Position numbers and translations under genes: made by a program. A model generated the notes under the pieces. It saw only the letters and a list, made by a program, of their open reading frames with translations, did not search any database and had not been told where the DNA came from. Positions 5,327 through 56,465 of a DNA stretch of 64,000 nt are shown piece by piece. Source of the stretch: an uncultured Methylomirabilota bacterium (GTDB taxonomy: Bacteria; Methylomirabilota; Methylomirabilia; Methylomirabilales; 2-02-FULL-66-22); assembly GCA_963705305.1 (NCBI GenBank), contig OY970067.1, positions 320,001-384,000 of the forward strand, written 5' to 3'. The stretch's first letter is position 1, and each line of letters starts with the position of its first letter.

Positions 5327-5358
5327 AGTGCCGGGGGAGCGGACCCTCACTGGAGCGA
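5327..5358 (+). repeat. att-like junction J1
   Basis: AGTGCCGGGGGAGCGGACCCTCACTGGAGCGA; 27/32 ungapped identity to copies at 33641 and 56434. Confidence 0.8.
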
Positions 5359-5389
5359 AACACCCGTCCTCACCAGGCAGACGGCAGCA

Positions 5390-6110
5390 AACTGCCTGGC
5401 CGTCCTCGTAGGGGCGGGCGTCGTCCAGTACTGGCACGTGGCCCTCCTGGCGACCTGCTACGGCCTGGCCTTCACCCTCGATATGCCCACGCGGCAGGCG
5501 TTCGTCGTGGAGATGGCGAGCAAGGCGGACCTCCCGAACGCCATCGCCCTCAACTCCAGCATGGTGAGCGGCGCCCGGATGGTGGGCCCCGCCATCGCCG
5601 GCCTGCGCTACGCGGTCCACACCCCCCTCGTGGCCCTGCCCCTGAGCCTCCTCCTGACCCTGGGGCTCTTCGTCACCAACCACAACGTCCTGGTGCCCCT
5701 GCTGGCCCGGGACGTGCTCCACGCGGGGGCCCACGGCTTCGGCCCCCTCATGGCCGCCGTGGGCACGGGGGCCATCCTCGGGGCGCTGGCCCTGGCGACG
5801 CTGCTGACGGGCCGCCCGCCCTTCGCCCTGCTCCTGGGCACGGCCGGCGCTGCCGCGGGCCTCACGCTGGCGCTCGCGGGGATCCGCTCCTTCGGGGCGG
5901 CCCTGCTCGCCTTGACCGGGGTGGGGCTGGCGCAGATGGTGTTCGTGGCGGCCTGCAACACCACGCTCCAGCTGGTGGTCCCGGACCGCATGCGGGGCCG
6001 GGTCATGAGCCTCTACGCCTTCGTGTTCGTCGGCAGCACGCCCCTCGGGGCGCTCTTCGTGGGCACGACCGCGGACTGGGTCGGGGTCTCGGCCTGCTGG
6101 GGCGGCGGGG
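5390..6110 (+). pseudogene. MFS transporter remnant (5'-truncated, in-frame internal deletion, 3' decayed)
   Basis: DMPTRQAFVVEM, NAIALNS, PDRMRGRVMS motifs; no N-terminus; GPAIAG joined directly to LRY. Confidence 0.8.
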
Positions 6111-6318
6111 GTGGGCCGCGTCACCTGATCCCCTCGCCGAGCCGCCGTCGGGGGCCTGAGTGCTCGAGGGGAGTGCGATGCCCGGAGCCACGCGACTCGT
6201 GTGGGACACGCGAGCCGGGTGGGCCCCCATGGGCCGACCCGTCCATGGCAAATTCAGGGCTCAGACGGGCTGGTGTGACTGCCCGGAGGAGATCCGACGC
6301 CTTCTCGATTTGGCCGGG

Positions 6319-7041
6319 CTACGCACCGGAGGGCGCATCGATGCCGAGGTAGGCCGCCCGCACCTGCTGGTTGTTGACCAACTCGGCGCTCGTGCCGTCC
6401 ATGACCACCTTGCCGCTCTCGAGGACGTAGGCGCGCCGGACCAGGGTCAGCGCGCGGCTGGCGTTCTGCTCGACGAGCAGGATGGCCGTGCCCATGGAGT
6501 GGATCTTCTGGATCGCATCGAAGGTGGCATCGGTCACGACCGGGGCGAGCCCCAACGACGGCTCATCCAGCATCAGCAGCCGCGGCTTCAGCATGAGGCC
6601 GCGCCCGATCGCGAGCATCTGCTGCTCTCCGCCGCTCATCGTGCCCGCGACCTGGCTTCGGCGCTCGGCCAGCACGGGAAAGACGGAGAAGACCAGGTCC
6701 AGAGTGCGGCGCCGTTCCGCTTTGGCCCGCGGCGTGTACGCCCCCATCTCCAGATTCTCCTGGACGGTCATCTCGGTGAACACCTGGCGGCCCTCGGGCA
6801 CGTGGGCGATCCCCAGCTCGGGGACCTTGTAGGCCGGCAGGGAGTCGATACTCGCCCCCTCAAACGTGATGCGCCCCGACCGGAGGCGTATCAGCCCCGA
6901 GATTGCCCGCAGCGTGGTGCTCTTGCCGGCCCCGTTGGCGCCCAGCAGGCCGACCGCTTCCCCCTCGCCGATCGTGATGCTGATGTCGGCGAGCGCCGTC
7001 ACCGACCCGTAGCTCGCACTCACTCCAGACAGCGCTAGCAC
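6319..7041 (-). CDS. livF: Branched-chain amino acid ABC ATP-binding protein (LivF-like)
   Basis: GANGAGKST, VPEGRQVF, MSGGEQQMLA, LDEPSLGLAP. Confidence 0.93.
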   Translation of the reverse strand: MLALSGVSASYGSVTALADISITIGEGEAVGLLGANGAGKSTTLRAISGLIRLRSGRITFEGASIDSLPAYKVPELGIAHVPEGRQVFTEMTVQENLEMGAYTPRAKAERRRTLDLVFSVFPVLAERRSQVAGTMSGGEQQMLAIGRGLMLKPRLLMLDEPSLGLAPVVTDATFDAIQKIHSMGTAILLVEQNASRALTLVRRAYVLESGKVVMDGTSAELVNNQQVRAAYLGIDAPSGA

Positions 7042-7122
7042 CTGCGGCCTCCGGAAGCGACGCCACCCTGACGAAGGAGCGCGAGAGCGGCTCCGCCACG
7101 GCAGCCGCCCCGCCGCTCACAC

Positions 7123-7851
7123 TCAGGCATGCGAGTAATGGCTCCCCAGATAGGCGCTGATCACCGCGGGATCCGCGGCGATATCCCTGGGGCCGCCCTC
7201 GGCGATCTTCCGTCCGTGATCCAGGACGACGATATGCTGGGCGACGGCCATGACGGCGCGCATGACGTGCTCGACGATCACGATGGTCAGTCCCCGCCTC
7301 GAGAGCTGCCCCACCAGCGCGACAGCTTGGTCGGTCTCGGCCGGGTTCAGCCCGGCGATGACCTCGTCCAGCAGAAGGAGGCGGGGCTCTGTCGCCAGCG
7401 CCCGGGCCAGCTCCAGCCGCCGTTGGTCGATGGCGTTCAAGTCGCACGCCAGGCGGTCTTCCATGGCCGACAGCCCCACGAACTTGATCGCCTCGCGGGC
7501 CCGCCTGCGGGCCGCCTGCAGGTTCTTGTCGCGGAGCAGCGCGCCGGTGATCACGTTCGCCAGCACCGTCATCTTGCCGAACGGCCGGGCCACTTGGAAG
7601 GTGCGGGCGAGGCCGCGCACACACACGTCATACGGCCGCAGGCCCACCAGCTCGTGGCCAAAGGCCAGGATCGACCCCGCATCGGGGCGATAGTAGCCGG
7701 TAATGAGGTTGAAGCACGTGGTCTTGCCGGCCCCATTCGGCCCGATGAGGGCGACGGTTTGCCCTTCCCCCACCGAAAAGGAGAGGTCCTGGACGGCGCG
7801 CAAGCCGCCAAACCGCTTGCTGAGCCCATGAACCGCCAGCACCTCACCCAT
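7123..7851 (-). CDS. livG: Branched-chain amino acid ABC ATP-binding protein (LivG-like)
   Basis: KRFGGL, GPNGAGKTT, ARTFQ, IVEHVM, C-terminal AYLG. Confidence 0.93.
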   Translation of the reverse strand: MGEVLAVHGLSKRFGGLRAVQDLSFSVGEGQTVALIGPNGAGKTTCFNLITGYYRPDAGSILAFGHELVGLRPYDVCVRGLARTFQVARPFGKMTVLANVITGALLRDKNLQAARRRAREAIKFVGLSAMEDRLACDLNAIDQRRLELARALATEPRLLLLDEVIAGLNPAETDQAVALVGQLSRRGLTIVIVEHVMRAVMAVAQHIVVLDHGRKIAEGGPRDIAADPAVISAYLGSHYSHA

Positions 7852-8878
7852 CCAGCGGAGCCCCTTTCTGCGCGGCGGCCGTCGCGGCCCGGCTGCCGCC
7901 TGGGGCGGCCCCGACCAGGCGATCGTAGGCGCCGGTCAGGACTCCCAACAGCCCGGTGGGCCGCCACAGGATGACGGCCATCAGGATGATCGCGTAGAGC
8001 GTCAACTGCACGCCGCCATGAGCCCCGCCAAGCCAGCTCTGCATCAGAGCGGAGGTCGGCTCCAGCAGCACGGTGCCGATGACCGGCCCCCACAGCGTGC
8101 CAATCCCCCCGACGATCGCGACCAGCGCCGCCTCCACCGAGACGTTGAAGTTGAAGACGGTGTTCGGGTCGATGAAATAGATGTACTGCACGTAGAAGGT
8201 CCCGGCCAGGCCGGTGAGGAACGCGCTGATCAGGAAGATGTTCCGCTTGATCCGCGGGACGTTTACCCCCACGGCCTCCGCCGCATCCTGATCCTCCCCC
8301 AGGGCGACCAGGTAATAGCCCATCCAGGATCGCTCGACCCAGTGGGTGGTCCCCAGGGCCATCGCCAGCAGGGCAAGGGCAATGTAGTAATAGGCGGCCT
8401 TGGCGTCGAACTGCATCATCAAGGGGGAGTTGCCCAGGTTGGGAATGGTGGTGCCCTCGGCGCCCCAGGCGAAATCGCGGAATTTCAGGAACAGCAGCAT
8501 CAAGACTTCGGCCACCCCGATCGTGGCGATGGCGAAATAGGCGCCCCGCAGCCGGAAGCAGAGGATGCCGATCGGCAGGCTGGCCAGCATCGCCACCACG
8601 CCGCCGGCCACGATGCCGATCCAGGGGGACACGCCGTACCGGATGAGCAGGATGGTGGAGGTGTAGGCTCCGAGGCCGAAGAACGCCGCGTGCCCCAGGG
8701 ACAGCTGCTTGGCGTAACCGCCCAGCAGGTTCCAGGCCACCCCGATGAAGGAGAAGAGCAGCACCCGGATGAAGATGTCGACGGCGAAGGGGCTCGACAC
8801 GATCTGGGGCAGGAGGACGAGACCCAGCGCCGCCGCCGCGAGCCCCATCCCGGCCGCAGGACGCAGCCGACGCTTCAT
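7844..8878 (-). CDS. livM: Branched-chain amino acid ABC permease (LivM-like)
   Basis: WNLLGGYAKQLSLGHAAFFG, GAYFAIAT, VGGIGTLWGP; start at MKRRL. Confidence 0.92.
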   Translation of the reverse strand: MKRRLRPAAGMGLAAAALGLVLLPQIVSSPFAVDIFIRVLLFSFIGVAWNLLGGYAKQLSLGHAAFFGLGAYTSTILLIRYGVSPWIGIVAGGVVAMLASLPIGILCFRLRGAYFAIATIGVAEVLMLLFLKFRDFAWGAEGTTIPNLGNSPLMMQFDAKAAYYYIALALLAMALGTTHWVERSWMGYYLVALGEDQDAAEAVGVNVPRIKRNIFLISAFLTGLAGTFYVQYIYFIDPNTVFNFNVSVEAALVAIVGGIGTLWGPVIGTVLLEPTSALMQSWLGGAHGGVQLTLYAIILMAVILWRPTGLLGVLTGAYDRLVGAAPGGSRAATAAAQKGAPLDG

Positions 8879-9744
8879 GTGGTCCGTCCCTTGTAGAGGC
8901 CGCTGGGCCGGATGGCCAGGGTCAGGAGCAGCACCGCGAACACCACGATCAGCCCCGAGTCCGCCCCGACGAACTGAATGCCCAGCGACTCCGCCATCCC
9001 CATCATCAGGCTGGCGATCAGCGCGCCCTTGACGTTGCCCATCGTCCCCAGCACGACGGCCACGAACGCCAGGAGCACGAACACCTGCCCCACCGAGGGA
9101 TACACGGAGTAGAAGGGCATGATCAGCGAGCCGGCGGCGCCCGCCAATGCCAGCGACAGGCCCACGGCGATCTCGAACACATGATACGGATTGACGCCCA
9201 TCAGCATGGCCACGTCCGGGTTCTGTGCCGCGGCCCGCATGGCCTTCCCCAGATCGGTGGCGCGCAGGAAAACTTCCAGGGCGCCGCTCAGCAGCATGGC
9301 CAGCCCGAAGGCGATCAGCCGGGCCACCCCCACGTACACGGGTCCGATGCGTATGGCGGACTCCGTGAAGCTCGTGGTGACAGTCCGATAATCGGCGGTG
9401 AACAGCAGCAGCGCAAGGTTGATGAGCAGCAGCGACAGCGCAAAGGTGAGGAAGATCTGCGGCATGTCGCCGAGCCCCAGGACCCTCCGGATCAGGAATC
9501 GCTGCAGCAGCACGCCGACGACGAACAGCATCGGCATCGAGACCACCAACGACGCGATCGGGTCCAGCCCGATGCGGGAGGCCAGCCAGTAGCTGATGTA
9601 CATGCCGATCATCACGAACTCGCCCTGGGCGAAGTTGACGATCTTCACCACGCCGAAGATCAGCGTCACGCCGATGCTCACGAGGGCGTAGATCCCCCCG
9701 ATGAGCAGGCCGTTCACCAGGGCCTGAGCGACGACAGTTGCCAC
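8875..9744 (-). CDS. livH: Branched-chain amino acid ABC permease (LivH-like)
   Basis: GVTLIFGVVKIVNFAQGEF, GKAMRAAAQN, RPSGL. Confidence 0.93.
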   Translation of the reverse strand: MATVVAQALVNGLLIGGIYALVSIGVTLIFGVVKIVNFAQGEFVMIGMYISYWLASRIGLDPIASLVVSMPMLFVVGVLLQRFLIRRVLGLGDMPQIFLTFALSLLLINLALLLFTADYRTVTTSFTESAIRIGPVYVGVARLIAFGLAMLLSGALEVFLRATDLGKAMRAAAQNPDVAMLMGVNPYHVFEIAVGLSLALAGAAGSLIMPFYSVYPSVGQVFVLLAFVAVVLGTMGNVKGALIASLMMGMAESLGIQFVGADSGLIVVFAVLLLTLAIRPSGLYKGRTT

Positions 9745-9765
9745 GTACGATCCCTGTGCTAGCCG

Positions 9766-33403: not shown

Positions 33404-33640
33404 GGCGCCGCGTCCTCGTGCGGCTTATGCGATTCGAGGACCGGGCATCGGCGACTCGGCCGGCGGCGGATTCGGATAGCAGGGAACAGGCTGTCAGCGC
33501 CCGCGGGCTCGAGGAGATGACCCAGCCGGCGGATGTGTTCCCGCCGGGTTTGCACGGGACTTACGGCCCCTGAGTTCTTGAGAGGGGAAGCGGTTGGGGA
33601 ATGGCGGAGAGGCGACCGAAGACACCGTGCGCACGCCATT

Positions 33641-33672
33641 GGTGCCGGGGGACCGGACCCACAACGGAGCGA
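33641..33672 (+). repeat. att-like junction J2
   Basis: GGTGCCGGGGGACCGGACCCACAACGGAGCGA; 28/32 identity to J6. Confidence 0.8.
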
Positions 33673-33733
33673 ACCGTCCGGTCCGTCACCGGGAGGCATA
33701 GGTGTCCATGCGGTTGTTGGAAGCCTTCCCATC

Positions 33734-34171: not shown

Positions 34172-34551
34172 CTCTTCCCCCCGCTCTCTTCGGCTTCCAG
34201 CAATCCGCGTCAGCTCCGGTCCCTGGTGGAGCCACCCATAAACACCAAACCGTCACCGGCTTGCCCCCATGCCGATCAACACCCCCTGGGTTGCAGGAGA
34301 GAAGCCTGGCGAAGCGTCGCCGAAAGAGTATGCCTGCGACCACGGGCTGTCAACCCAAAGCGCGCCCAGGCCGGCGACCGGGGGGCTGCGGACGCAGGCA
34401 AAAGAGGGTCCTGTCCGGGAGTTTGAAATGGGAGCAGTCCAGGGCGGGTCGTGCCGAGTTTGGGAAGCAGGGTCAACCTGGATGGTCAGTCTCGGGTGTG
34501 CGATGCCGGCTAGAAGAACCAAGTCGAGGGAATGGAAGACTCTTACGCAAT

Positions 34552-34608
34552 TGGCGGTCCGCGGGAGGGAATCGAACCCCCATGAGGTTGCCCTCGCGGG
34601 ATTTTGAG
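34552..34608 (-). tRNA. 3' half of tRNA-Leu(CAA); non-functional att remnant
   Basis: Minus strand CTCAAAA anticodon loop, GAGG-GCAA-CCTC long variable arm, GGGGG-TTCGATT-CCCTC T-arm, degenerate acceptor ending CCA; no 5' half upstream. Confidence 0.85.
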
Positions 34609-34720
34609 AAACGTTTTGGAGTCTTTAGATTCAGGTACTTCCAGCGTCGTTGGTTCGATTTTTGGTTCAGTCCCGTTTTGCCCACTGGCCTCCTTCACGT
34701 CTGCCCAAAACGAGTGTACC

Positions 34721-36179
34721 ATATCTGAAAGCGCTACTCCGGGCAAGGCCAATAACATTCGCTGCGCAAGAGCCCCGCGGCAGGATTGGGGATAGACCAC
34801 GCCTGGCCCGGCCCAGCGCGCCCGAAGGTGGGGCGCAGGGCCGGCGGACGATCCCGCGCGCGGTTGTGGGTGGTTCGGTCTCCCTCCCTACGGGTTGCGG
34901 GCCTCGGGTGCCGGTGTCATCGGAACCATATCTTCGCCGTCATCGCGGCATGATGGTGTCCCGGAGGGAACGTCGCAATCAGATTCCGAGCGTCTCCCGC
35001 TCATGGGCACTTCGCGCTGGTCCCTCCGTGGACGACGCCGGGCGGGCCGCCGGGTCGCGGGTCCGGTTCCCGCTTGGTCAGGATCCAATAGGTGGCTTCC
35101 GCCAAGTGGCGCGCGACCGCGCCGATTGCCGTCGCGTGCCCCTTCCGCTGCTGGATGCGCGTATAGAGGCAACGGACGTGGCGGTGCGGCCGGGCGGGGC
35201 GCGTGCGGTCGGTGGGACTCGCCGCCTCGACGAAGGCCCACTTGAGGTAGCGAGTGATGTCCACCCGGAGCTGGCCGTAGTGGACGCGGCCCCCGCTGGC
35301 GTGCACGCGCGGCGTGGTGCCGGCATAGGCGGCGAGCTGCGCCGCGCGCGGGAAGCGGCGGATGTCGCCGATCTCCAGGCGGAGGACCACGGCCAGCACC
35401 CACCCGACCCCGGGGAGCGTCCGGAGGAGCTGGAGCTCCGGGGTGGGCGCAAAGACCGCGCGCCGGCGCGGCTCGAAGCCCTCGATCTGGGCCGACACGA
35501 CGTCCAGCTGCTCCAGGAGGCGCTCCGTGGCGGTCCCGACTGTGCGGCGCCAGCAGGGGGAGGGCGGTGGTGAGGAGCCACTGGCGCCCGCGGCGCCCGA
35601 AGAGATCGCTCGTCCCCTCCAGGCGCAGGCCGGTCCTTGGCCAGGGTGGCGTGGATCCGATTCTTGAGCCGGGTGCGCTCCCGGGTGAGGACCATGCGGG
35701 TGCGGGGGAGATCCCGCTGATCCCGGAGGGGGCCGGGCGGGATCCACACCGTGGGGAGCGTCCCGGCCCGCTGCAGCCGGGTCCGCCCCCGCGCGTCGAG
35801 CGTGTCGGTCTTGGTCCCCAGGCCGCGCAGGAGCTTCGCCTTGCGCGCGTGGACCAGCTGCGGGACCTGGCCGGCCGCTTCGATCTCGTCCACGATCCAG
35901 TCCCAGGTGCCGACGGTCTCGACCGCCACCGGCGAACCCCGCTCGCGGGTCGCGAGGAATTGCTGCAGGGCGCCCCGGACGTGGTCGATCCGGCCCTCGT
36001 ACCGGCGCTGGCCGTCCTCCGTCTCCACCGAGACCTGGGTGTACCGCTTGTGGGCATCGAACGCGATGTACTCCATGGCAGCGCGCCTCCTCTCAGCGGG
36101 GACCCCGCCCGCACCCCCTCCCGGGTCGACCGCAGCATACGCTGCAGTGCTCAGGAGGCGCAGCGCTTTCATAGCATCA
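34721..36179 (-). mobile_element. IS110 family (IS1111-type) insertion sequence, decayed
   Basis: Subterminal inverted repeats TGAAAGCGCT (34726-34735) and AGCGCTTTCA (36162-36171), ATAT right end, long 3' non-coding region. Confidence 0.8.
35001..36076 (-). pseudogene. IS110 DEDD transposase with two frameshifts (~35640, ~35540)
   Basis: [20 protein letters not shown] and [15 protein letters not shown] spread over three frames. Confidence 0.9.
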
Positions 36180-36356
36180 GATTCTGCTGGGCGTGCGTAG
36201 CCCGTGTCCAGGAAACCGGGAGCGGTATACTTAGCGCGACCACTCGGCCCAGCGTCCTCCCTCAATCGCGGCAAGGAATTCTGCGACGTGAAGGTTGAAG
36301 AGCTCCGGCTCTTGGAGATTCGGCGTGTGGCCGCAAGCTGGGAAGACGACGAGTCA

Positions 36357-40366: not shown

Positions 40367-40557
40367 TGTTTCCCCCGCGGTCAGGGGAGGCACGTCCAGA
40401 CTCATCGGACACGCGCACTTGAGACAGGAGGTCCGCTGAGGTCATGAATCCCAGGCGTTTGCAGGAGAGTATTCGGGGCTGGACGGGGTCGCGGCGGACG
40501 ACAACGCGACGCTGGCGATAGAAGTCAAGATGGATTGGCTCCTTGGCCTCAAGCAGC

Positions 40558-40589
40558 CATTGCACATTCAGGGTGCCGGGGGGGCGAAC
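40558..40589 (+). repeat. att-like junction J4
   Basis: CATTGCACATTCAGGGTGCCGGGGGGGCGAAC; 29/32 identity to J5. Confidence 0.75.
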
Positions 40590-40722
40590 CTAAGGGTATT
40601 TTTGCGGTTCCCCCGGAGCTGCTTGTCCCCTTCCAGGGTCAATGGGCGGCCTGAGAATACTCGCCGCCCGGACCCCCGTCAAATGCCGGACCGGGCGCGG
40701 GACGGGGAGGAAGGGGACACCG

Positions 40723-41446
40723 ATGAACGTCCTGGGGTACATCCGGGTCAGCACGAACGAGCAGGCGGAGAACGGGGTGAGCCTGGCGGCCCAGCGGCAC
40801 CGGATTCGGGAGTACTGCCAGGCAAACGGCTACAAGTGCGTCGAGATCCTCGAAGACGACGGGTACAGCGGGAAGGATTCTCCGGCGCCCGGCGCTCCAA
40901 CGCCTCCTGGCAGAGCTGGAGGCTAAGGGGTGCCCATTGGGCGCCCTTGTCGTGGCCAAATTGGACCGGCTGACCCGGTCGGTCCGGGACCTCATCCGGC
41001 TGACCGAACTCCTCCGGAAGCATGGCGTAGCCTTGGTCTCCATCCAAGAGGCGGTGGACACGTCCACGGCGACGGGGCAGATGTTCTACACCCTCGTGAC
41101 CGTCATCTCCGAGTGGGAGCGGGGCGTCATCGGGGAACGGACCCGGGAGGCGCTGGCCCACAAGCGGCGGGACGGCAAGCGGGCGGGGGCGATCCCCTAC
41201 GGATTCAAATTGGCACGGGATCGCAAGACGCTGGTGGAGGTCCCCGAGGAGCAGCGGACTCTCGCGCTGATCCAGCGTAAGCGTGAGCGGCTCAATCTCA
41301 GCTTCTCCCGGATCGCGACGGACTTGAATGCCAGGGGCAACCTGGCGAAGCACGGCGGCCGCTGGCAGCCCGGGACTATTCGTAGCGTCCTCCGGACCCT
41401 CCACCGCCACGGGGGAATGCTCGGACCTGTGAGAGCGGCCGGGTGA
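40723..41446 (+). pseudogene. Small serine recombinase (resolvase domain plus short DNA-binding domain), one extra base at ~40879
   Basis: YIRVSTNEQ (catalytic Ser), GYSGK, KLDRLTRS, EWERGVIGERT, IPYGF; removing one T restores GKDLRRPALQRLL. Confidence 0.85.
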
Positions 41447-41921
41447 ACCCGGAACAGGGAGGAACTGGGGCGGAGAGCTGGCGAGGGAGGCACAGGATCA
41501 GTCGGCGTGCCGGGGGGCTCATGAAGACCGCTGCTGTCCCGTCAAGGACTTAGAGAATTGATCCCTGCATTTTACCTGGCGAGATCCCCGCTTTCCGCCT
41601 GCTCCCTTCCCACCCGTTTTCGGCCCATCACAGGGCGTCCAGGGGGGGCAAAGCTCCCCTGGAAAGCGATCGCCCATCCTCGGGCTTCCTGGTGGGCTAG
41701 GCGGGGGGTTTCGAGGGCATCTCCGGGACCCTCCGGATAGCCCTGGATCCGCCCGGCTGGCGGCGGGGCTCACCACTGCGGTTACTCGGAGCCGATCATT
41801 TAATTCCCCCCCGGCCCTACAGAGGGAGCAGCGGGGGCGAAATTCGGAGGGTATTGACTGGTGGCCTGATGAGGTGTCCCGTTCGAGGCCTGCACGGCTC
41901 CCCAAGCAGGGCGAAGCTCTA

Positions 41922-42116
41922 GCCGTTACACAAAGGTGTTGATAACGGTCGGCGTTTCGCTAGTAACGGCATGAATTGGTTGACCGAATCGGAACGCCTT
42001 GTCGGGGAAGAAATCTTCCTCGATGTCAGCTCAATCCGAAAAGGACGGAATGCGCTGTAACCACAGAGGAATCGCGCCTATTGACAAGCGAATCTTCAAC
42101 ACCTTTGTGTAGCGGG
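41922..42116. mobile_element. MITE, 195 bp, TA-flanked
   Basis: TIRs GCCGTTACACAAAGGTGTTGA and TCAACACCTTTGTGTAGCGGG (19/21), TA on both sides. Confidence 0.8.
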
Positions 42117-42492
42117 TAGGCCCGGCCCCGAGACTGGGATAGGAGTACGCGCCCCAGAGATAAGCCCCCGCCCAGTACGGGGTGTAGCCATAGTAGCCAT
42201 GGTAGGCGGTCTCGTGCTGCCGCGAGACCGGCTTCTCCGTGTCGATCGGGGGACTCTCCGCCACCTGGGCCTTCGTCAGCGCGGCCATGAGTCGCTTCTG
42301 CGCCCAGTCGATCGCGCGGACGGCGATCGGCGAGAGGAGCACCTTCCGGCCCGACAGCCACCCCCCCGTCTCGACCACGACGTAGCGCACCGTGTAGCTC
42401 ACATCGTCGAAGTAGCCGTCGTGGACCGTGCCGATGTCCCCATCGGTGGCCCCGATCGTGAACCCGTGGAGCGCCTTCATGCTCCGGAGCAT
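42117..42492 (-). pseudogene. PRC-barrel domain protein truncated by the MITE
   Basis: MLRSMKALHGFTIGATDGDIG...YFDD...RYVVVETGGWL; frame runs into the MITE after YGYTPYW. Confidence 0.85.
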
Positions 42493-43407: not shown

Positions 43408-43460
43408 CGGCCTGGCGCCCAGACCCGCTGGCGCACCCAGCCCGCGCCTTGCGCCTCCTG

Positions 43461-45467
43461 GTAGGGTCGAGGACTGGCGCGGCACCCCTTAGGCTCCCCT
43501 TGGCCGTGTCCGCCGTTTCCAGCTTCGTGCCCGTTTAGGTTGGCCGTGAGCCCGTCTCCAGTCCCCGCCGCATCAAACGGAGCGTGCGGATTTCCCGCAC
43601 TCCGCTTTCCTGCCCGTTTCACCCCAAGGGTTATGGGACCTATCGGATGGGGAGCGCTGTCAGCGGGGCGCCGCGCGGTACCGAATGCGATAATCGCCAT
43701 ACAGCCCGAGCGTCGCATAGAGCCACCGCCGACTCCACCTCGTCCACCCGAGGCCCGGACGATTCCGTGCCCGCATCAGGTGCCGCCGCACCTTCTGCTC
43801 CACCCAGTTCCGGACGTAGGAGAAGCACCGACTGGCGTGGCCCACGGCGAAATACTGGACCCAGCCGCGCAGCACGGGGTTGATCTCGGCGATCACCTTC
43901 CGTACGGGCTGAGACTGGAGGTGCCGAAAGATCTCCTTGAGCGTCCGCAGCAGCGCCGCGCGCTTCTTCAGCTGCGGCGTCCGCAGCGGCCACCAGACGC
44001 CCCGCTTGGAGCGGACGCGCCAGAGGGTGAAGCCCAGGAAGTCCACGGTCTCCCCCTTCACCAGGTCCACGACTCGACTCTTCTCTTCATTGACCTCGAC
44101 ATGGAGGAGCGCCAATTCCTCGCGGAGCCGTTTGGTGATCGCGTCGAGCAGCCAGGCATGGCGGGGATGGGCGTCCACCAGGACGACCAGATCATCGGCG
44201 AACCGCGCGTACTCCAGCGCCGTGTACTGGTGGAAACAGGTGACCGCCTTGGCGCGCTCCAGCATCCGGTCCACCTCGGTGAGGTAGAGGTTGCTGAGCA
44301 GCGGGGAGATCACCCCACCCTGAGGAACACCCATCTTCCCGGAAGCCTTCAGCATCTGCTTGAGCAGGGCCAGGATGTCCAGATCGTTGACGCGCCGGGC
44401 CACCTTCGCGAGCAGCACATCGTGCCGCACGCGATCGAAGTAGCTTCGGAGATCAAGATCGATGATCCTGGTCTTGCCTTGGCTGATCGCTTTGGCCACC
44501 CGGTCCACCGCTTGATGCGCCGACTTCAGCGGGCGGTACCCAAACGACCCGGGTTGGAAGTCAGCCTCGAAGATGGGCTCCAGGACGAGCTTGAGCGCGC
44601 CCTGGACCACGCGGCGCGGATGGCGGGGATCGAGAGGATTCGGACCTTGCGGCCGTTGTCCTTCGGGATCGCCTGCTTCCGGCACCGCAGGGGCCGAGTC
44701 CGTGCGCGAGACCAGTGCGTCCCGGAGCGACTGGAGGAACCCCTCGACGCCGCTCGCTTCGATGGCGGCAAAGGTCACCCGGTCAATGCCTGGGGCGCCA
44801 TTGTTCGCCTTCGCTGCTGCGTACGCTGCCCGGAGCGTCTCCAGCTTGCACACATGGACGTACAGGCCCCAGAACCGCCAGGACGGTTCGGCCTTCGCCT
44901 TGGCGTAAATCCTCCGCTGCAGGTCTTGCAGCCCGATAGACGCCATTGTCATTGCGTCTCTGCCTCCCGTGTAGGCGGAGGAACACGAACAGCAGGGTCC
45001 CTTCGCTCCGGCGGCATTACCCGCCTTCGTCGCTACTCCGGACCCATCCGCCACCGTCTCGTCGTCCGCCCCTTTCCCGAGGGACTCCCGGTTATAGGAC
45101 GTACCCAGCTTCCGCCGCTTTCGCGACGGGACGAGGACGGCTTCTCCAGTTGCTCGGCATGTCCTGTGTCACCGTGCTGTCCCTACCACCCCGCCGAAGT
45201 GGCATGCGGCGTCAGTCAGCTTGCCGCCTGTCATGCTGCCTTCGCCCCGGACCAAAGGGCTCGGCCTTCGGGGTCATTTTTTCGAGGCCACTGGTGGGTT
45301 CACTTGCGTTACGGCCCGGTGACTCGCTCACCATCCCGATGATGGCTTTGTCGGTTGGCTTCCTCCGCTTCGTTTCCTCCGCGGAGGCAACCCAAGCTAC
45401 GGGGGGTCTGACTGTTCCCCCGGTGGGACTGCCTCCCACTGAACATGCCAGCCTTCGCTGGACACGC
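43461..45467 (-). mobile_element. Group II intron (full-length RNA)
   Basis: 5' GCGTG (GUGYG variant); domain V AAGCGGAGTGCGGGAAATCCGCACGCTCCGTTT; extended domain VI ending CCCTAC; RT ORF inside. Confidence 0.88.
43660..44952 (-). pseudogene. ltrA: Group II intron reverse transcriptase/maturase with compensating frameshifts; no endonuclease domain
   Basis: GAPGID, SFGYRP, PQGGVISPLLSN, RFADD, FLGF, RGWVQYF; the IPK...RILSIPAIR segment (~44620-44700) is in another frame. Confidence 0.88.
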
Positions 45468-45656
45468 CGGCCCGCAAAAACTTCAGATGTTGCCCATGCC
45501 TTGAGTCGAATTCTACGCTTTGATCAGTACGGAACCATTTGATTGTAAAAGAATCTTCCAGCGTCGACCACTCTGAGATGCGACCCATTGCCAATTTTGG
45601 GTCCGTCCACCGGGACTAGTCGAAGACTTAGGATTGGGAATTTTGCTTAATTGGCA

Positions 45657-45688
45657 GTCCGCTCCCCCGGCTCCCTGAATGTGCAATG
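45657..45688 (-). repeat. att-like junction J5 (inverted)
   Basis: Minus strand CATTGCACATTCAGGGAGCCGGGGGAGCGGAC. Confidence 0.75.
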
Positions 45689-46268
45689 ATTGTCTGGGCC
45701 CCCAAGAGGGCCTCCGGCTCCACGCCGGGCGTTACCTTCCCATCCTCGCCCACCATGGTGTTTTCGATCATCACTCGGATTGTCCCCCGCCCTCGGCCCG
45801 TGTCTCCACTGCACAACTTCTCGGTCTGGCTGAGCTCCGCACGCATTCAAAATCCGTCCTCACGGTGCCCCAATACTCTCCGCTGCGGAGCACTAGGAAG
45901 GGGCACCGCCTCGAATGGGCGCGACGCCCACCGCCCGTCGGTCCGGTTCCCTGACCTCAGGGAGCCAACCTGCTGTTCTGTATTCTTGCCGGCATTCTCG
46001 CTCGCCTTCCCGAGGGGGTGGGAGGGATCGGGGGGCGCCGCTGCCGCGGGGGGACCGGAGCGACCCGCAGGGAATGGCGCTTGCAAATGGCAGCCGAGGT
46101 TTTGTACTATCTGGGGGCGCGAAGGGGACGTGCGACGGCCTCGTGCAGGAGGCATCCCCACCTCGTGGTTCCTGGAATCGCGGACGTCTAGGGCGGTCGG
46201 GACGGGCCGTGTCTTGGCCCGGGGGTGGGTACCGGGGGCCGGACATCGGTGACGGGAGAGACGCCGCC

Positions 46269-47834
46269 ATGACCCGGGCGGAAGAGGGCCTGCGGGCGGA
46301 GTTGGAGGAGCGGCTGCGGTTCGAGGCGCTTCTCGCCGACCTCTCGGCCCGCTTCGTCCACGTGCCGGCCGAGCAGGTGGACCGGCTGATTGAGGAGGCC
46401 CAGCGGCGCATCGTCGAGGCGCTGGGGGTGGACCGCAGCACCCTCCTGCAGCGGGCGGAGGCGGAGAACGACCTGGTCATCACACACGCCTGGGCCGTGC
46501 CGGACTTCGCGGCCCAGCCCGGGCTCTTTGCGATCCGGGATTTCCCCTGGGTGCATCAGACGCTGCTGCGGGGCGGGACCGTGCGCTTCGCGACGCTGGC
46601 GGAGCTCCCCCCCGAGGCCACGCGTGACCAGGTCTCCTTCCGCAAGATCCACCAGAAGTCCAACCTGATCTTTCCGCTGGCCGCGAGCGGGCGGGTGTTC
46701 GGGGCGCTCTCCTTCGGCACGCTCCGGACCGAGCGCGAGTGGCCGGACGTCCTGGTGCAGCGCCTGCAGCTCCTGGCGGACATCTTTGCCAATGCCCTGG
46801 CGCGCCAGCGGAGCGAGCAGGCGCTCCGGCGCGCCCTGGACGATGCCACGCGCCTGAAACAGCAGCTCGAGGCCGAGAACGCCTATCTGCGCGAGGCGGC
46901 CCAGGCGCAACCCAGCGAGATCGTGGGGAACTCGCCGGCGCTGCAGCAGGTGCTGTCCCAGGCGGACCACGTCGCCCCCACCGAGACCGCCGTGCTGCTG
47001 CTGGGGGAGACCGGCACCGGCAAGGGACTGCTCGGGCAGCTCATCCATCGCCGGAGCCGGCGAAAGGACCGTGCGATGGTCACGGTCAACTGCGCGGCCC
47101 TCCCCCCGACCTTGATCGAGGCCGAGCTGTTCGGGCGGGAGAAGGGCGCCTATACGGGGGCCCTGACCCGCCAGGCCGGGCGGTTCGAGCTGGCGCACGG
47201 CGGGACGCTCTTCCTGGACGAGATCGCCGAGCTCCCGCTGGAGCTGCAGGTCAAGCTGCTGCGGGTCCTGGAGAACGGGCAGCTGGAGCGGATCGGCAGC
47301 ACCCGGACCCTCACGGTGGATGTCCGGGTGATCGCCGCGACCAACCGGGACCTCGCCAAGCGGGTCGCGGACGGCACCTTCCGCGAGGACCTCTACTACC
47401 GCCTGAATGTCTTCCCGATCGCCGTGCCGCCGCTTCGGGAGCGCCAGGAAGACATCCCACTGCTCGTCTGGACCTTCGCCAAGCAATTCGGCCAGGCGCT
47501 CGGCAAGCCCGTGGAGCGGATCCCCCAGGAGACGATGGCGGCGCTCCAGGGCTACCCCTGGCCCGGCAACATCCGGGAACTGCGGAACGTGATCGAGCGC
47601 GCAGTCATCCTCAGCGAGGGTTCGACTCTCCGGGTGCCGCTAGGGGCGACCGCCGGCCCGAGTGTGGCCGCGCCACCGACCCTCGCCGACGCCGAGCGCA
47701 CGCAGATCGTGGCCGCGCTGGAGCAGACCGGCTGGCACATCCGCGGCCCGGCCGGAGCCGCCAAGCTGCTCGGCCTCAAGCCCACCACCCTCGAGTCCCG
47801 CATCAAGAAGCTCGGCCTCGAACGCCCCCGCTGA
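46269..47834 (+). CDS. Sigma54-dependent activator (GAF, AAA+, HTH; FhlA-like)
   Basis: [50 protein letters not shown]. Confidence 0.92.
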
Positions 47835-47849
47835 GCGGCTGGCCCCGCC

Positions 47850-47882
47850 TCCAATGGTTCGGAGCCGCTCCGACATATCGGA
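47850..47882. promoter_or_regulatory. Tandem activator sites
   Basis: TCCAATGGTTCGGA-N5-TCCGACATATCGGA directly after the activator gene. Confidence 0.7.
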
Positions 47883-50812: not shown

Positions 50813-51094
50813 CGGCACGCACCGCACACCTCGGCGGGTCGGTTCACCGCGGAAAGCGGCGCGGCCATCGGCCTAGTGCTGCAGTGTGAGTGATGAGAGA
50901 ACGTGGGAAGACCTGTCAATGAATAGCAGGAGCGCTCGTGTGTGCATTGCCTCGAGGCCGTCCGGAGCCTCACGGCGTCTCCGCTCAGGCGGTGCTCGCA
51001 CCGTGGGAACCTCGAGGCGCCGACCCCATCGCAGTGCTCGGCTGCACGGGTGCGCCGATCATTCCGCATCCGTTGTCGAAAGGAGCGAAGCACA

Positions 51095-51385
51095 ATGAAG
51101 AAGATGAAGCCATTGCACGACCGGATCCTGGTCAAGCGTCTGGAGGAGAAAGAGACGAAGAAGGGCGGGATCATCATCCCGGATACCGCCAAGGAGAAGC
51201 CCCAGGAGGCCGAAGTCATCGCCGTGGGTCCCGGCAAGGTCACCGACGATGGAAAGCTCCAGCCCATGGCGGTGAAGGTGGGCGACAAGATCCTCTTCGG
51301 CAAGTACTCGGGGAGCGAAGTGAAGCTGAACGATGAGGAATACCTGATCATGCGGGAGGAGGATGTCCTCGGCATCCTGCAGTAA
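51095..51385 (+). CDS. groES: Co-chaperonin GroES
   Basis: [32 protein letters not shown]. Confidence 0.97.
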
Positions 51386-53095
<1,710 letters not shown>

Positions 53096-53131
53096 ACGGT
53101 CGCAGGAGGCTTTCCCCCTTGTGTGGGGCAT

Positions 53132-53163
53132 GGCATCCCCGGCGGCTACCCGCCGGGGATGCC
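53132..53163. terminator. Strong hairpin downstream of groEL
   Basis: 14-bp perfect stem GGCATCCCCGGCGG/CCGCCGGGGATGCC; no clear U-tract. Confidence 0.55.
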
Positions 53164-53262
53164 CGCCGGAGACGCGTATGCTCCGAACGTCTCCCATGGG
53201 GTAATAGCGGAGAGCGGCACGACGAATCACCTCCTGCGAGGATGCGAGCCTGGATTCTTCGC

Positions 53263-53374
53263 CCGCGCCGTGGAAAGGCGCTCTGTTCTTGCCGGTGCAA
53301 GTCCGGCCTGGGGCATTGTCGGTGCGCCCCAGTAGCTACCGAGGCGGCAAGGAGGGTAACCAAGTCGCCGAAGC
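53263..53374 (+). ncRNA. 5' remnant (domain I) of a second group II intron
   Basis: Same order of elements as the 5' end of the intron at 45467: TGTTC, hairpin, GGGG/CCCC stem, GTAGC, GGAGG..AAC, GAAGC. Confidence 0.65.
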
Positions 53375-53381
53375 AGCACGG

Positions 53382-53430
53382 CGGCGTTGCAGTTCCTCTG
53401 GAAGCCGCAGGCATCCTGTGGCAGCGATGA
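53382..53430 (+). repeat. 49-bp intergenic motif, copy 1
   Basis: 39/49 ungapped identity to 54604-54652. Confidence 0.7.
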
Positions 53431-53528
53431 GCGGTGTGTGACTGGAGGATTGCGAATTGACAAGCAGGTGCAGAGATAACACGTCGCGGTCAGCGCATTC
53501 AGGTGCCTAATTCATGGAGGGAATCGAC

Positions 53529-54452
53529 ATGCGAAAAAGCAGCTCGTTTGCCGCATTGATCTTCATCGTAATTCTTGGCATTGGCGGTGGAGTAGCCTTT
53601 GCCCTGTATCGAGTCACGGCGAACCTGGCAAGCGCTTGGATTGGCACCCTAGCGTTTGTGGTCGCCCTCGTTGTGTCGCTCGCCATTAAGGTGGCGGATC
53701 AGTGGGAGCGGGCGGTGATCTTGCGGTTAGGCAAGTTCCGCGCCCTCAAGGGCCCGGGACTGTTTTTCATTCTCCCGGTCCTCGACGCGATCCCGTACTG
53801 GATTGACACCCGCGTGATCACCGCGTCGTTCAAGGCGGAAAAGACCCTGACCAAAGATACGGTGCCGGTGGATGTCGATGCCGTGCTCTTCTGGAAAGTG
53901 GTAGACCCCCAGAAGGCGGCCCTGGATGTCGCCGACTATCAAAGCGCCATCAATTGGGCCTCCCAAACGGCGCTGCGGGATGTCATCGGCAAGACCATGC
54001 TGTCGGACATGCTGGAAGGCAGGGAAAAGATTAGTCAGGAGCTGCAGAAGATCATCGATGTGCGCACCGAGCCCTGGGGCATTAATGTGATTTCGGTGGA
54101 AGTCAAGGATGTTCTGATTCCCTCGGCCCTGGAGGATGCGATGTCGATGCAGGCCCAGGCGGAACGAGAACGGCAGGCCCGGGTGATCCTGGGAGATTCG
54201 GAGCGCCAGGTGGCGGAGAAGTTTGGAGAAGCGGCCAAGACCTACGCCAACAATCCGATCGCGCTGCATTTGCGGGCGATGAACATGCTGTATGAGGGGT
54301 TGAAGGAGAACGCCACGATCGTCATTGTACCCAGCACGGCCGTGGAAACCATGCAACTCGGGAGTATTGCCGGGGTGACTGCGCTGACCATGGGATTGGG
54401 CCAGGAGCGCGTAAACAAAGAGAAGGAAAGCGAACTCAGAAAACAAGAATGA
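53529..54452 (+). CDS. SPFH/band-7 (slipin/stomatin-like) protein
   Basis: QWERAVILRLG, LTKDTVPVDVDAV, QTALRDVIG, QAQAERERQA. Confidence 0.94.
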   Translation: MRKSSSFAALIFIVILGIGGGVAFALYRVTANLASAWIGTLAFVVALVVSLAIKVADQWERAVILRLGKFRALKGPGLFFILPVLDAIPYWIDTRVITASFKAEKTLTKDTVPVDVDAVLFWKVVDPQKAALDVADYQSAINWASQTALRDVIGKTMLSDMLEGREKISQELQKIIDVRTEPWGINVISVEVKDVLIPSALEDAMSMQAQAERERQARVILGDSERQVAEKFGEAAKTYANNPIALHLRAMNMLYEGLKENATIVIVPSTAVETMQLGSIAGVTALTMGLGQERVNKEKESELRKQE

Positions 54453-54603
54453 CGGCAATGTACGATGAGTGGTGTCGAGACTCGTAATCACATTGCCGCG
54501 TCCGACAACCAGCGGGGGCGGCCAACGGTTACGTCTATTGCCCGTTGGCGGCGGCACCACGCCCGACGACAGAGTAAACGGCGCGAGTGATACCGCGCTG
54601 CGA

Positions 54604-54652
54604 CGGCATTGCGGTTCCTCTCGAAGCTGATCCCATTCTCTGGCAGCGATGA
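54604..54652 (+). repeat. 49-bp intergenic motif, copy 2
   Basis: 39/49 ungapped identity to 53382-53430. Confidence 0.7.
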
Positions 54653-54691
54653 TTCACCCTCGAATGGGAGTAGGAAAAAGGAAGACGACCT

Positions 54692-55170
54692 ATGCAAAAG
54701 CCAAAAAGACCGAAAAGAATGCGACAGCCAACAGGGCGGACACGGTCCGTGTCAGGCGAGGCCGCAGAAAAGGCGGACGCGACCACAGACCTCACTACGT
54801 CCGAACGCCCGCTGCATGATTATGGGGCAGAGGTATCGGAGCGGACTGATGTGCGAGTTGGTGTGCCATTGCCTCTGGGAACCTATGCACGCGGCGAAGG
54901 CGTGAACTGTGCCTTATTTAGCCGGCACGCCAGCCGCGTTCGGCTGGAGTTGTTTGATCATCCCGAAGATGCGGCGGCCGGCAGGGTGACTGATCTGGAT
55001 CCCGCGCGCAACCGCACGGGTGACGTGTGGCACGTCTGGATTGAGGGGATTCGACCCGGTCAACTCCGTGCCTATTGCGTGGACGGCCACGCCAACAGCA
55101 GGCAGTAGATCAGAGGGAGGCGAGACCGGCTCAAAGGGGATTGCGACTTCAACTAACCGCTGCTCGAACC
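54692..55170 (+). pseudogene. glgX: Glycogen debranching enzyme N-terminal fragment
   Basis: PLPLG...GVNCALFSRHA...NRTGDVWHVWIEGIRPGQ; stops follow and similarity ends at the element starting 55170. Confidence 0.85.
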
Positions 55171-55403
55171 TGAATTACTACTGACTTCAAGCCGCTAGGC
55201 TCGGAATGCACCTCTGGCTGAGTGGTGTACAACGGTACCACGTATCAACGTCGTCCCTCGGTCAACTGGAAGTCGACCTGGGTTGGGTCGGGGACACACC
55301 GGGACTCAGGGGCGCCATTACCTGAGTGCGAGGGCTGAAGACTGCGTGAGCATGGGGCCCTCTATCGCCCAATGTGACTCGCCTAAAGGTGAGGGGTTTC
55401 CAC
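55170..55403 (-). mobile_element. Non-autonomous IS200/IS605-type element, copy 2 (degenerate)
   Basis: Shares GGTCRACTGGAAGTCGAC, CTCAGGGGCRCCA, CTATCGCCCA and GCCTRAAGG...TTTCCAC with the reverse complement of 38825-38971. Confidence 0.7.
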
Positions 55404-55475
55404 TGAGGCCGGGCGGCTGCGACGTACGGGGATACGGAGGTCGAATTCGCCTTCGGGCCGTCTGGTCCGGGGTGG

Positions 55476-56096
55476 GTGATGCACGTGGGGGCACTCCAAG
55501 GGGTCGTCGGGCACTTTACGTACCTCGGCATTTTCGCCGTGCTCGTCCTGGGCAGCCTGGGGGTGCCAATCCCCGAGGAGATGGCCATCATCGCGACCGC
55601 CGTCCTGAGCCACGCGGGTCTCATCCGGTGGTGGCTGGCGCTCCCCGTCTGCCTCCTGGGCGCGCTCTCCGGCGATATGGTGCTCTACTGGGTCGGCCGG
55701 CACTGGGGCGAGGCCGTCCTCAACTGGCGCGTGGTGCGGCTGGTACTGACGCTCAAGCGTGAGCAGTGGCTGAACGCGGCGTATCGACGGCATGCCCTGA
55801 AGACTGTCGTCACGGCGCGGTATATCATGGGACTCCGCGCCGCGGCGTTTCTGATGGCGGGCATTGCGCGCGTGCCATTCTGGAAGTTCGTCGTGGCCGA
55901 CGCGGGCGCCGCCGCACTCGGCGTCCCTTTCCTGTTCGGTCTGGCCTACTTCTTCACCGAGGAGATCACAGCCATCGCGGCCGATGTGCACCGGGGGGAG
56001 CGCTGGCTTGTGCTCGCGGGCCTCGTGGGGCTTATGGTGGTGCTGGGCGTCGGCGTGTGGCGATGGAAACGGCGTCTCGGGTCGGAACGGCCTTGA
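55476..56096 (+). CDS. DedA family membrane protein
   Basis: GVPIPEE, GDMVLYWVGRHWG, ARYIMGLR. Confidence 0.92.
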   Translation: MMHVGALQGVVGHFTYLGIFAVLVLGSLGVPIPEEMAIIATAVLSHAGLIRWWLALPVCLLGALSGDMVLYWVGRHWGEAVLNWRVVRLVLTLKREQWLNAAYRRHALKTVVTARYIMGLRAAAFLMAGIARVPFWKFVVADAGAAALGVPFLFGLAYFFTEEITAIAADVHRGERWLVLAGLVGLMVVLGVGVWRWKRRLGSERP

Positions 56097-56433
56097 GGGG
56101 GAGCAGAGCGAGGGGGATGCGCCCGACGCGTGCGACCCGCGAGGCCGCCCATCATTCCGTTCGCACACCGGAGAACGCGCCGCCCGACCGAAGGAGTCCC
56201 GGGCCGGTTCCTGTCGTGACTGTCACCAGAGGGTGACCGCTCAGCCGGGTGATCACGAACCCCTGTGAAGCCCCCCACCCATGACCCCTCCCTCAAGAAG
56301 CGCGGGCCCCGGTGCCCGCGCTAACGGAACAGTGGATTCGATCTGCGGGCGGTAGGCGGTGGAATTTGACCTTGAGGTGGGACGGATTACTTCAGCCGCC
56401 GAGTCCTACTCATCTTCATTGTTGGACTCGAAT

Positions 56434-56465
56434 GGTGCCGGGGGAGCGGCACCACAATGGAGCGA
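56434..56465 (+). repeat. att-like junction J6
   Basis: TGGTGCCG-GGGGAG-CGGCACCA perfect dyad followed by CAATGGAGCGA. Confidence 0.8.

Follow-up and report, generated by a model that had tools for sequence, protein, structure and literature searches.

Among the systems so far described, the closest to the one considered here is that of the ssrA-specific genomic islands of Dehalococcoides, as outlined in excerpts of the account by McMurdie et al. (2011; PMC3146451). According to these excerpts, the islands carry the CcrB-like serine recombinases DsiB and DsiA, lie in tandem downstream of a tRNA-like gene, target the T-loop region of its 3' end and are each bounded by a direct repeat of that end. 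The same excerpts place the integration module next to one attachment (att) end, and some islands that are without such a module are regarded as cis-mobilisable (PMC3146451). A family of short repeat sites that invites comparison with these islands is described here from an uncultured Methylomirabilota bacterium, whose genome is a single contig of 5.65 Mb (OY970067.1, 66% GC). The stretch analysed, termed the window, consists of 64,000 nucleotides (genome positions 320001-384000), and positions are those of the window unless given as genome positions. The sites form one family of ~45-bp imperfect dyads, and it is proposed with moderate confidence that they are att-like dyads of a small serine-recombinase element family that was derived from the end of a tRNA-Leu gene. 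Small modules end at these sites and are found in many combinations, namely bodies without open reading frames (ORFs) and one module that codes for the recombinase.

Five of the sites had been listed in a first-pass annotation of the window; a sixth, J3, was missing from it. The sites are as follows.

5327..5394, plus strand: J1, core at 5328-5345, right arm and the remnant of a 'short body'; abuts a 5'-truncated MFS_3 gene (5395-6352).
33630..33700, plus strand: J2, core at 33642-33659, CACAACGGAGCGAA arm and a degenerate short body.
34543..34608, minus strand: J3, the 3' half of tRNA-Leu(CAA) from the anticodon loop to the 3' end (34556-34608), then a dyad-type trailer, GCCAATTGCGTAAG (34543-34555).
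40557..40590, plus strand: J4, left arm CCATTGCACATTCAGG and core; the left boundary of the serine-recombinase module.
45643..45688, minus strand: J5, a complete dyad with left arm, core at 45656-45673 and right arm GCCAATTAAGCAA.
56311..56465, plus strand: J6, a module of ~150 bp with a degenerate first core (~56311-56322), a perfect hairpin (56433-56454) and a right arm.

A 32-nt consensus is matched with 2-3 mismatches by J1, J2 and J6 (at 5327, 33641 and 56434, all on the plus strand), and it found 0 matches in 100 dinucleotide shuffles. The same three sites make up the direct-repeat families D12 and D14. J1 and J2, when their strings are read directly, differ at 5/32 positions, which fits the gapless likeness of 27-28/32 that the first-pass annotation had claimed for the three. 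J4 (40545-40589) and J5 (45657-45701) are a 45-nt inverted pair (I3) with 80% complementarity, so that the kinship proposed for these two also stands; the orientation of J5 is opposite to that of all other window copies. Symmetry around a G-rich centre of 6 bp, another part of the annotation, is visible in the dyad of J6 (TGGTGCCG-GGGGAG-CGGCACCA) and in the outer arms of J5 (TTGC...GCAA). Its placement of the five sites outside genes is borne out as well: each of J1, J2, J4, J5 and J6 is intergenic or abuts a broken gene.

How did the dyads originate? A complete copy consists of the left arm TTGCaCAATTaGG, the core GTGCCG-GGGGAG-CGGACC and the right arm gCCAATTGaGCAA. The half-site is CCGGCACC/CGGACC followed by CTAATTGTGCAA-like bases, and two halves face each other around the G-rich centre. 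On the opposite strand, core and arm are identical to the final bases of tRNA-Leu(CAA) together with the trailer; the tRNA-Leu(CAA) gene at genome 4044163-4044250 ends in CCCTCCCCCGGCACC and continues with CTAATTGTGCAATGG. The dyad thus represents two copies of the tRNA end and trailer placed head to head, and the suspected link with tRNA-Leu is real. J3, where a tRNA-type 3' half and a dyad arm are joined, is 94% identical over 50 nt to a second such fragment at genome 473196-473245.

The units that recur between sites are ORF-less modules of 65-285 bp. In G020, a genome of the same genus, many sites are pairs of direct cores that enclose a conserved body without genes. A body of ~230 bp is present there in five copies of ~90% identity, where conservation starts and stops sharply at the cores. 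The short body, of ~65 bp, is found at no fewer than eight sites (class R1), and there is a further size class of ~110-150 bp. J1, J2 and the genome copies 1205539, 3159668 and 3823091 are each a core with a more or less degenerate short body, and the R1 right flank of J2 is common to copies 1205539 and 3823091 and to G020 loci. J6 is the second core of its module, and its left 110 nt (flank class L4) are found again at genome 3014500-3014631 (84%) and at G020:C1:633-772 (86%).

When 110 nt on each side of 43 sites were clustered, the same left flanks were found with different right partners. Flank L1 is present at J4, at genome copy 1591519 and at the tRNA at 4044 kb (the ~100 nt to the left of J4 and of copy 1591519 match at 76%), and L4 at J6 and 3014502; in both classes the right partners differ. 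L5 stands before a solo site in locus L028 and before a long body in L031, and L6 before a long body in L033 and before another module, R7, in L037. Re-assorted flanks part at the core in every case, which gives the pattern L-core-P' ... P-core-R expected as the product of a reciprocal site-specific exchange, and the sites therefore look like recombination sites. The att-like nature put forward in the first-pass annotation is upheld by these varied combinations of unrelated left and right flank classes.

Might the motif instead act as a signal in RNA or DNA, for example as a terminator, as an operator or as the hairpin of a 5' leader before a GGAG ribosome-binding site? The hairpin is stable, GGAGCGA follows it in J1, J2 and J6, and J2 and J6 lie between convergent genes; in distant homologs of the recombinase, short dyads that could be operators stand 10-12 nt ahead of the start codon. 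However, the hairpin is not followed by a T run, the genes around J1 and J5 are divergent, and no start codon is placed at a consistent distance after GGAG. Rfam gave no match over the elements at E <= 10 or over the G020 loci at E <= 1, nor any at E <= 0.01, and the covariation term in the consensus fold of four sequences is +0.06 of -7.71 kcal/mol, i.e. near zero. A structured RNA was rejected on the empty Rfam search and the near absence of covariation among the four copies. A signal also leaves the re-assortment of flanks unexplained, and this explanation is considered very unlikely.

The proposal of att-like sites draws in addition on the gene that follows J4.

40723..41446, plus strand: gene for a serine recombinase of ~250 amino acids (Pfam Resolvase and the first half of Recombinase), preceded by a leader of ~133 nt at 40591-40722.

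A second copy is present at 4008.4-4009.1 kb of the genome. The close homologs are a natural family of 225-255 amino acids (2052 proteins at E <= 1e-20, one of them named as from an NC10 bacterium). Pfam assigns Resolvase (PF00239, E 3e-38) and positions 1-50 of the 102 of Recombinase, and no zinc-ribbon family; the best NCBIfam match is to the N-terminus of CcrB (profile positions 7-223 of 542), and the best sequence match in the PDB is the catalytic domain of TP901-1 integrase (E 1.4e-26). An AlphaFold model (mean confidence score, pLDDT, 86.4) has as its top Foldseek matches Bxb1 integrase (486 residues; 243 aligned columns) and the TP901-1 catalytic domain. The protein is thus made up of a catalytic domain, a long helix and the N-terminal piece of the 'recombinase domain' of large serine recombinases (LSRs), with neither zinc ribbon nor coiled coil. 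From the Pfam result, the CcrB N-terminal match and the alignment of the predicted model, it is seen to be the front half of an LSR: the catalytic domain is of the LSR branch, and the full LSR architecture (~450-750 amino acids with zinc ribbon and coiled coil) is absent.

The association of gene and site is found beyond the window. At the four genus loci with at least 57% identity (J4, the 4009-kb copy, G020:C1 and G010:C39), the core, A.AGGGTATTTTT and a conserved leader lie 135-150 nt upstream of the start in 4/4 cases; three more distant genus homologs are without this arrangement. Core plus leader is also present in 14/19 metagenome loci of at least 72% identity, or in 11/12 distinct full-length upstream sequences, and four of the five loci that lack it are truncated matches. 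To the left of the core, the sequences of the recombinase loci are unlike one another. As in LSR elements, an att-type site beside the recombinase gene thus forms a boundary, with unrelated left flanks. The junction and the forward tRNA-Leu 3' region are collinear; in the fragment at 473 kb the latter reads TCATGAGGGTTC - 10 nt - CCCGGCACC - CAAGGTATTTTTGCG. No recombinase remnant was found beside this fragment, where only ~16 nt of trailer match the recombinase leader. A full LSR with its 3' end on such a site had been predicted; a serine recombinase is indeed linked to the sites, but it has only ~250 amino acids and it is the 5' leader that starts at the site.

Other recombinases and more distant relatives were considered. 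An LSR of 748 amino acids in G020 was rejected as the enzyme of the system, as the ends of its element are not at motif copies. This 2.62-kb element, which holds little beyond the LSR gene, is of interest in itself: it is present in five copies of 99.9-100% identity (loci L047-L051) that show no link with the dyads. A tblastn search with a 653-amino-acid recombinase of the present genome gave no match to the short-recombinase loci. Among distant homologs in other phyla, the motif was found in 0/80 loci. At loci L064, L103, L107, L108, L112, L118 and L129 (Bryobacterales and other contigs of metagenome-assembled genomes), distant homologs of 45-50% identity have dyads of their own, such as TACCTAATA-GGGGG-TATTAGGTA, at the distance from the start codon given above, again with a G run at the centre.

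How widely are the sites spread? With a profile built from 13 copies, nhmmer at E <= 1e-4 found 14 copies in the genome, namely the 13 seeds and a new one at 465590; J4 is among the weaker matches. The 15 strong copies comprise seven at 319.6-465.6 kb and eight at 0.95, 1.21, 1.53, 1.56, 1.59, 3.16, 3.36 and 3.82 Mb; 12 are on the plus strand and 3 on the minus strand. In a survey of 41 genomes with the 18-nt core (<= 2 mismatches) and a reversed pattern as control, same-genus genomes gave matches well separated from the control (20 vs 1 in G020, 16 vs 1 in G010, 14 vs 3 in G006, 10 vs 1 in G019 and 9 vs 1 in G013), whereas in the other genera of the order (g2-g7) core matches were at the control level. 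The tally includes one unpublished genome, G028, on which none of the conclusions depends. A single tRNA-anchored array, as had been claimed, does not agree with 8/15 strong copies located elsewhere and with same-genus genomes that have sets of their own. The first-pass annotation had itself named genome-wide scatter with no tie to a tRNA or a recombinase as an outcome that would speak against it; the scatter is seen, but both ties are nevertheless found. A repeat of another kind, a miniature one of ~202 bp at 41919-42120, recurs elsewhere in the genome no fewer than 17 times; seven of these copies are 100% identical, and one is 2.1 kb from dyad copy 3355438.

The tRNA genes themselves offer a more familiar picture. 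ARAGORN found no intact tRNA in the window, J3 included, and in the whole genome tRNA-Leu(CAA) only at c[552102-552187] and [4044163-4044250]. An intact tRNA-Leu on the minus strand to the right of the window had been foreseen, and the gene at 552102-552187, 168 kb beyond, is that gene. On its 3' side, in matching orientation, are minus-strand fragments of the 3' part of tRNA-Leu at genome 516864, 516720 (degenerate), 473192 and 354555 (= window 34556-34608). An intact target gene followed on the 3' side by direct repeats of its 3' end in the same orientation is what tandem accretion leaves, and the series has the classical look of island accretion at a tRNA gene. Same-strand copies had been expected all the way to this gene; the 3'-half fragments at 516864, 473192 and 354555 conform to that, but the eight strong dyads elsewhere in the genome do not. 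The sequence at genome 473193 was rejected as an intact tRNA, as ARAGORN reports none there and it represents a 3' half. A tyrosine integrase lies 154 nt from fragment 516864, and tyrosine rather than serine integrases also stand alongside the tRNA-type 3'-end fragments at 2851548 and 3829108. Because such integrases adjoin three fragments, the tRNA fragments may stem from ordinary tyrosine-integrase islands. The unit at genome 516720-517465, where the integrase adjoins a tRNA-Leu(CAA) 3' half at a distance of 35 kb from the complete gene, is a tRNA island of the textbook kind and lies outside the window.

These tRNA data bear on the explanation favoured in the first-pass annotation, in which the blocks of 0.9-28 kb between sites are non-autonomous gene cassettes stacked in trans at tRNA-Leu(CAA). 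On the present data this would amount to an array of ~230 kb similar to those of staphylococcal cassette chromosomes (SCC) or ssrA islands. The Dehalococcoides islands, as outlined in the excerpts cited, offer a published precedent (PMC3146451). The intact gene with same-orientation 3'-half fragments is consistent with such an array, as is the finding that between 319 and 473 kb, 7/8 motif copies (6 dyads and the tRNA-type fragment at 473193) have the polarity of that series. The shared polarity is weak evidence, however, because 12 of the 15 strong copies are on the plus strand anyway and more than half of the strong copies are outside the putative array. It is also a tyrosine integrase that lies beside fragment 516864.

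Do the blocks behave as cassettes? J1 cuts an MFS_3 gene: homology to a full-length paralog (an open frame of 432 amino acids, genome 2147576-2148874) starts at 5395, which is paralog residue 109, exactly at the edge of the element. Rearrangement points are thus places where sites are found. In comparison with five same-genus genomes the region is a mosaic, and a two-gene ABC block (459-3633) is 93% identical to its G020 counterpart where neighbouring sequences are at 65-89%, with a site within 1.4 kb in both genomes. On the other hand, the site is on one side only of the ABC block in G020, and the J1-J2 interval is spread over at least four separate G020 contigs. The G020 dctQM pair, which lies between two sites, has no nucleotide-level counterpart at the dctM-adjacent site of the present genome. 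Synteny with the five relatives is poor everywhere and both edges of the putative array are rearranged, so that breaks specific to the junctions are not distinguishable. Neither the ABC block and dctQM nor the comparison with relatives yielded a block of genes that recurs between two sites, and the claim that the 0.9-28-kb blocks are cassettes is not sustained; what recurs are the modules of 65-285 bp. The large blocks between the window sites are best read as ordinary chromosomal operons flanked by scars. A cassette array, for which the analysis brought no positive evidence, is regarded as unlikely.

Several sequences near the sites are duplicated. A 1.6-kb stretch of a sigma-54 activator gene at 46265-47862 is repeated at 99.9% at genome 1588632-1590230, and both copies are 0.6-1.3 kb from a dyad (J5 and 1591519) in the same orientation relative to the site. 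A 1.5-kb MFS duplication (93.9%) is near J2 and copy 1205539. The 1466-bp IS110-family element (Transposase_20) at 34719-36184 has two more copies, at genome 2106678 (99.9%) and 961361 (97.4%).

A further possibility is that the dyads are hairpin repeats akin to repetitive extragenic palindromic (REP) sequences or miniature inverted-repeat transposable elements, moved by a Y1 or REP-associated tyrosine transposase (RAYT), by a tyrosine integrase or by an IS110-type enzyme, with the serine recombinase incidental. One RAYT-like ORF (NCBIfam REP_Tyr_transpos, E 1.1e-14, below the cut-off) is found 270 nt away from a perfect palindrome of 46 nt at genome 946470-946530, there are 17 RAYT-like ORFs in this genome, the hairpin geometry (7-bp arms, 6-nt centre) is one that would fit tyrosine recombinases too, and IS110-family copies are near two sites. 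But the motif occurs within ~1.5 kb of only 1/25 RAYT-like loci of the genus, which is the query locus itself and there on one side only, and the link with RAYT and REP was rejected on this count. The tyrosine integrases nearest to the 15 strong copies are at 2.8, 5.8 and 9.7 kb, with all others more than 20 kb away, and REP families usually have hundreds of copies and no modules of paired cores. This origin is judged to be quite improbable, somewhat more so than an array of cassettes. The family of ~340 amino acids with an N-terminal Y1/RAYT-like domain is large: members were found in each of the 21 genus genomes searched, with 17 matches in G000 and up to 25 in G006.

Att-like dyads of a serine-recombinase element family thus are the explanation preferred here, and a mechanism can be pictured. 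The recombinase would bind the dyad as a dimer, with strand exchange inside the G run, where the central bases are non-palindromic and so would give the site its polarity. Both its own module and, through action in trans, the mini-modules without genes would in this way be inserted and cut out again, with solo sites and hybrid junctions as leftovers of exchange. The system in this genome looks fossil, because both recombinase copies are frameshifted and most sites are solo or degenerate. The window sites are in a region rich in mobile elements, where ordinary island accretion at tRNA-Leu(CAA) is also found.

A number of points speak against this proposal. The recombinase beside the site could be mere cargo of a module moved by another enzyme. 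The 7-6-7 inverted-repeat core is also suited to tyrosine recombinases, and tyrosine integrases are present beside three tRNA-type fragments and 650 nt from one G020 site. Among sequencing runs, no RNA run is listed for the stretch, and no DNA run contains more than 0.13 of its words. Both genome copies of the recombinase gene are frameshifted, at about codon 50 (window, where the tblastn matches are in two frames) and codon 62. A second dyad at the downstream end of the recombinase module was not found, conservation stopping ~830 nt past the gene. An intact tRNA adjoins the recombinase in 0/21 loci, and integration into a tRNA gene is therefore not observed. Finally, G006 has 14 motif matches and no recombinase homolog at E <= 1e-20, at a completeness of 92%. 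The frameshifts may reflect decay or an assembly error, since the gene for a resistance-nodulation-division (RND) pump at 59145-62268 is also split. This pump gene (ACR_tran, minus strand) is in two overlapping frames that cover profile positions 2-415 and 416-1020.

A bolder version, which is doubtful, has the 'half' LSR acting in trans to exchange DNA among dozens of dispersed tRNA-Leu-derived dyads, in the manner of integrons or pdif sites, with the window as a partly fossilised product. As part of the same joint and equally doubtful claim, blocks of chromosomal genes (for transporters, regulators and chaperonin paralogs) would be shuffled along with the mini-modules, both inside one genome and from one genome of the genus to another.

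Two further features adjoin J5.

45469..45614, minus strand: module R7 (45469-45584) and a degenerate second hairpin (45585-45614); R7 comes after a site in three loci.
43493..45468, minus strand: group II intron at the end of R7, with an ORF for a reverse transcriptase (RT)/maturase at 43660-45054 (Rfam RF02003 and RF00029; Pfam; NCBIfam).

In the G020 loci L026 and L037, R7 is 86% identical and without the intron; the 3' exon could not be aligned, so that a clean empty site is unconfirmed. The 3' end of the intron is uncertain (43533 or ~43493), and its 5' limit, ~45468-45482, is taken from relatives. Homing of the intron directly behind the hairpin was rejected, as relatives put the 5' end ~105-120 nt past the hairpin, within R7. 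The intron encodes an RT/maturase of 464 amino acids in which Pfam finds no endonuclease domain; it is single-copy in the genome, and related copies are in 6/20 other same-genus genomes. The only Rfam matches in the window are group II intron pieces, at 43533-45441 (minus strand) and 53289-53419 (plus strand). The latter is a D1-D4 match of 54 bits located ~190 nt past groEL, behind the terminator hairpin of that gene (53140-53165); because no RT ORF or domain V match is nearby, it probably represents the relic of an intron. Elsewhere in the window, the segment 26317-33403 looks like a small ribosomal-peptide export cluster, with a sigma-54 activator (GAF domains), a 102-amino-acid 'Frankia_peptide' precursor (PF14407, exactly at the cut-off), an outer-membrane factor, an HlyD-type adaptor and an MFS protein.

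The zinc-ribbon and coiled-coil domains of LSRs are thought to set att-site choice and directionality. If a protein of ~250 amino acids does recombine ~45-bp dyads, the LSR branch would include a minimal site-specific integrase that works without these domains. This would bear on how control of att-site choice and directionality evolved, and the small size would be attractive for genome engineering. The sites would also define a third kind of recombinase-poor module system beside integrons with their CALIN (clusters of attC sites lacking integron-integrases) and pdif modules, and a case where a tRNA end was copied head to head into a free-standing recombination site. If the link between recombinase and dyad is non-functional, one is left with an ordinary repeat family in a junk-rich region beside classical tRNA islands. 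A full-text literature search, with papers judged from their abstracts, yielded no description of the dyad-site family or of a tRNA-site serine recombinase of ~250 amino acids.

How then do the sites compare with known systems? Integrons and CALIN are similar in having imperfect palindromic sites between modules and many arrays without a recombinase of their own. They differ in that integrons depend on a tyrosine recombinase, a folded single-stranded attC with RYYYAAC/GTTRRRY and one promoterless ORF per cassette, none of which is present here: the window sites have no GTTRRRY/RYYYAAC ends and no adjacent integrase, and they separate multi-gene operons on both strands. The pdif modules of Acinetobacter plasmids also are delimited by dispersed short dyads and served by a recombinase in trans, but they use the host XerCD tyrosine recombinases, 28-bp sites of 11-6-11 in alternating orientation and gene-carrying plasmid modules, unlike the modules described here. 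With REP sequences, bacterial interspersed mosaic elements (BIMEs) and REPINs with their RAYTs, the family shares short extragenic palindromes, mosaic clusters and one copy beside a RAYT-like gene; the link to RAYT at a single one of 25 loci, the low copy number and the directly paired cores set it apart. Classical tyrosine-integrase islands show the same direct repeats of a tRNA-Leu 3' half, with integrases by 516864, 2851548 and 3829108. They account for J3 and the other tRNA fragments, but not for dyads with conserved non-tRNA arms or for the mini-modules.

SCC and SCCmec composite islands, with CcrA/B, which are touched on in the excerpts of the ssrA island account (PMC3146451), are related through the same branch of serine recombinases, as the best NCBIfam match (CcrB) indicates. 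SCC use one gene end (rlmH/orfX), kilobase-scale cargo and recombinases of 450-560 amino acids, and none of these is seen here. A further likeness is that pseudo-SCC exist that are recombinase-less, bounded by direct repeats and movable in trans.

With the ssrA islands, as far as these excerpts describe them, the sites have in common a CcrB-like serine enzyme, a tRNA-type 3' end and same-orientation repeats downstream of an intact gene. In the islands the recombinase gene is ~1600 bp with its 3' end over attL, whereas here the protein has ~250 amino acids and its 5' leader starts at the site. The ssrA repeats are simple 20-bp direct repeats, all of them within 100 kb of ssrA (PMC3146451), whereas those of the present family are ~45-bp dyads, distributed genome-wide and mostly around gene-less bodies of 65-285 bp. 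Four features thus set the present family apart from the ssrA islands as outlined in those excerpts: a recombinase of half the size, repeats that are dyads, copies dispersed over the whole genome, and modules that are mostly small and gene-less.

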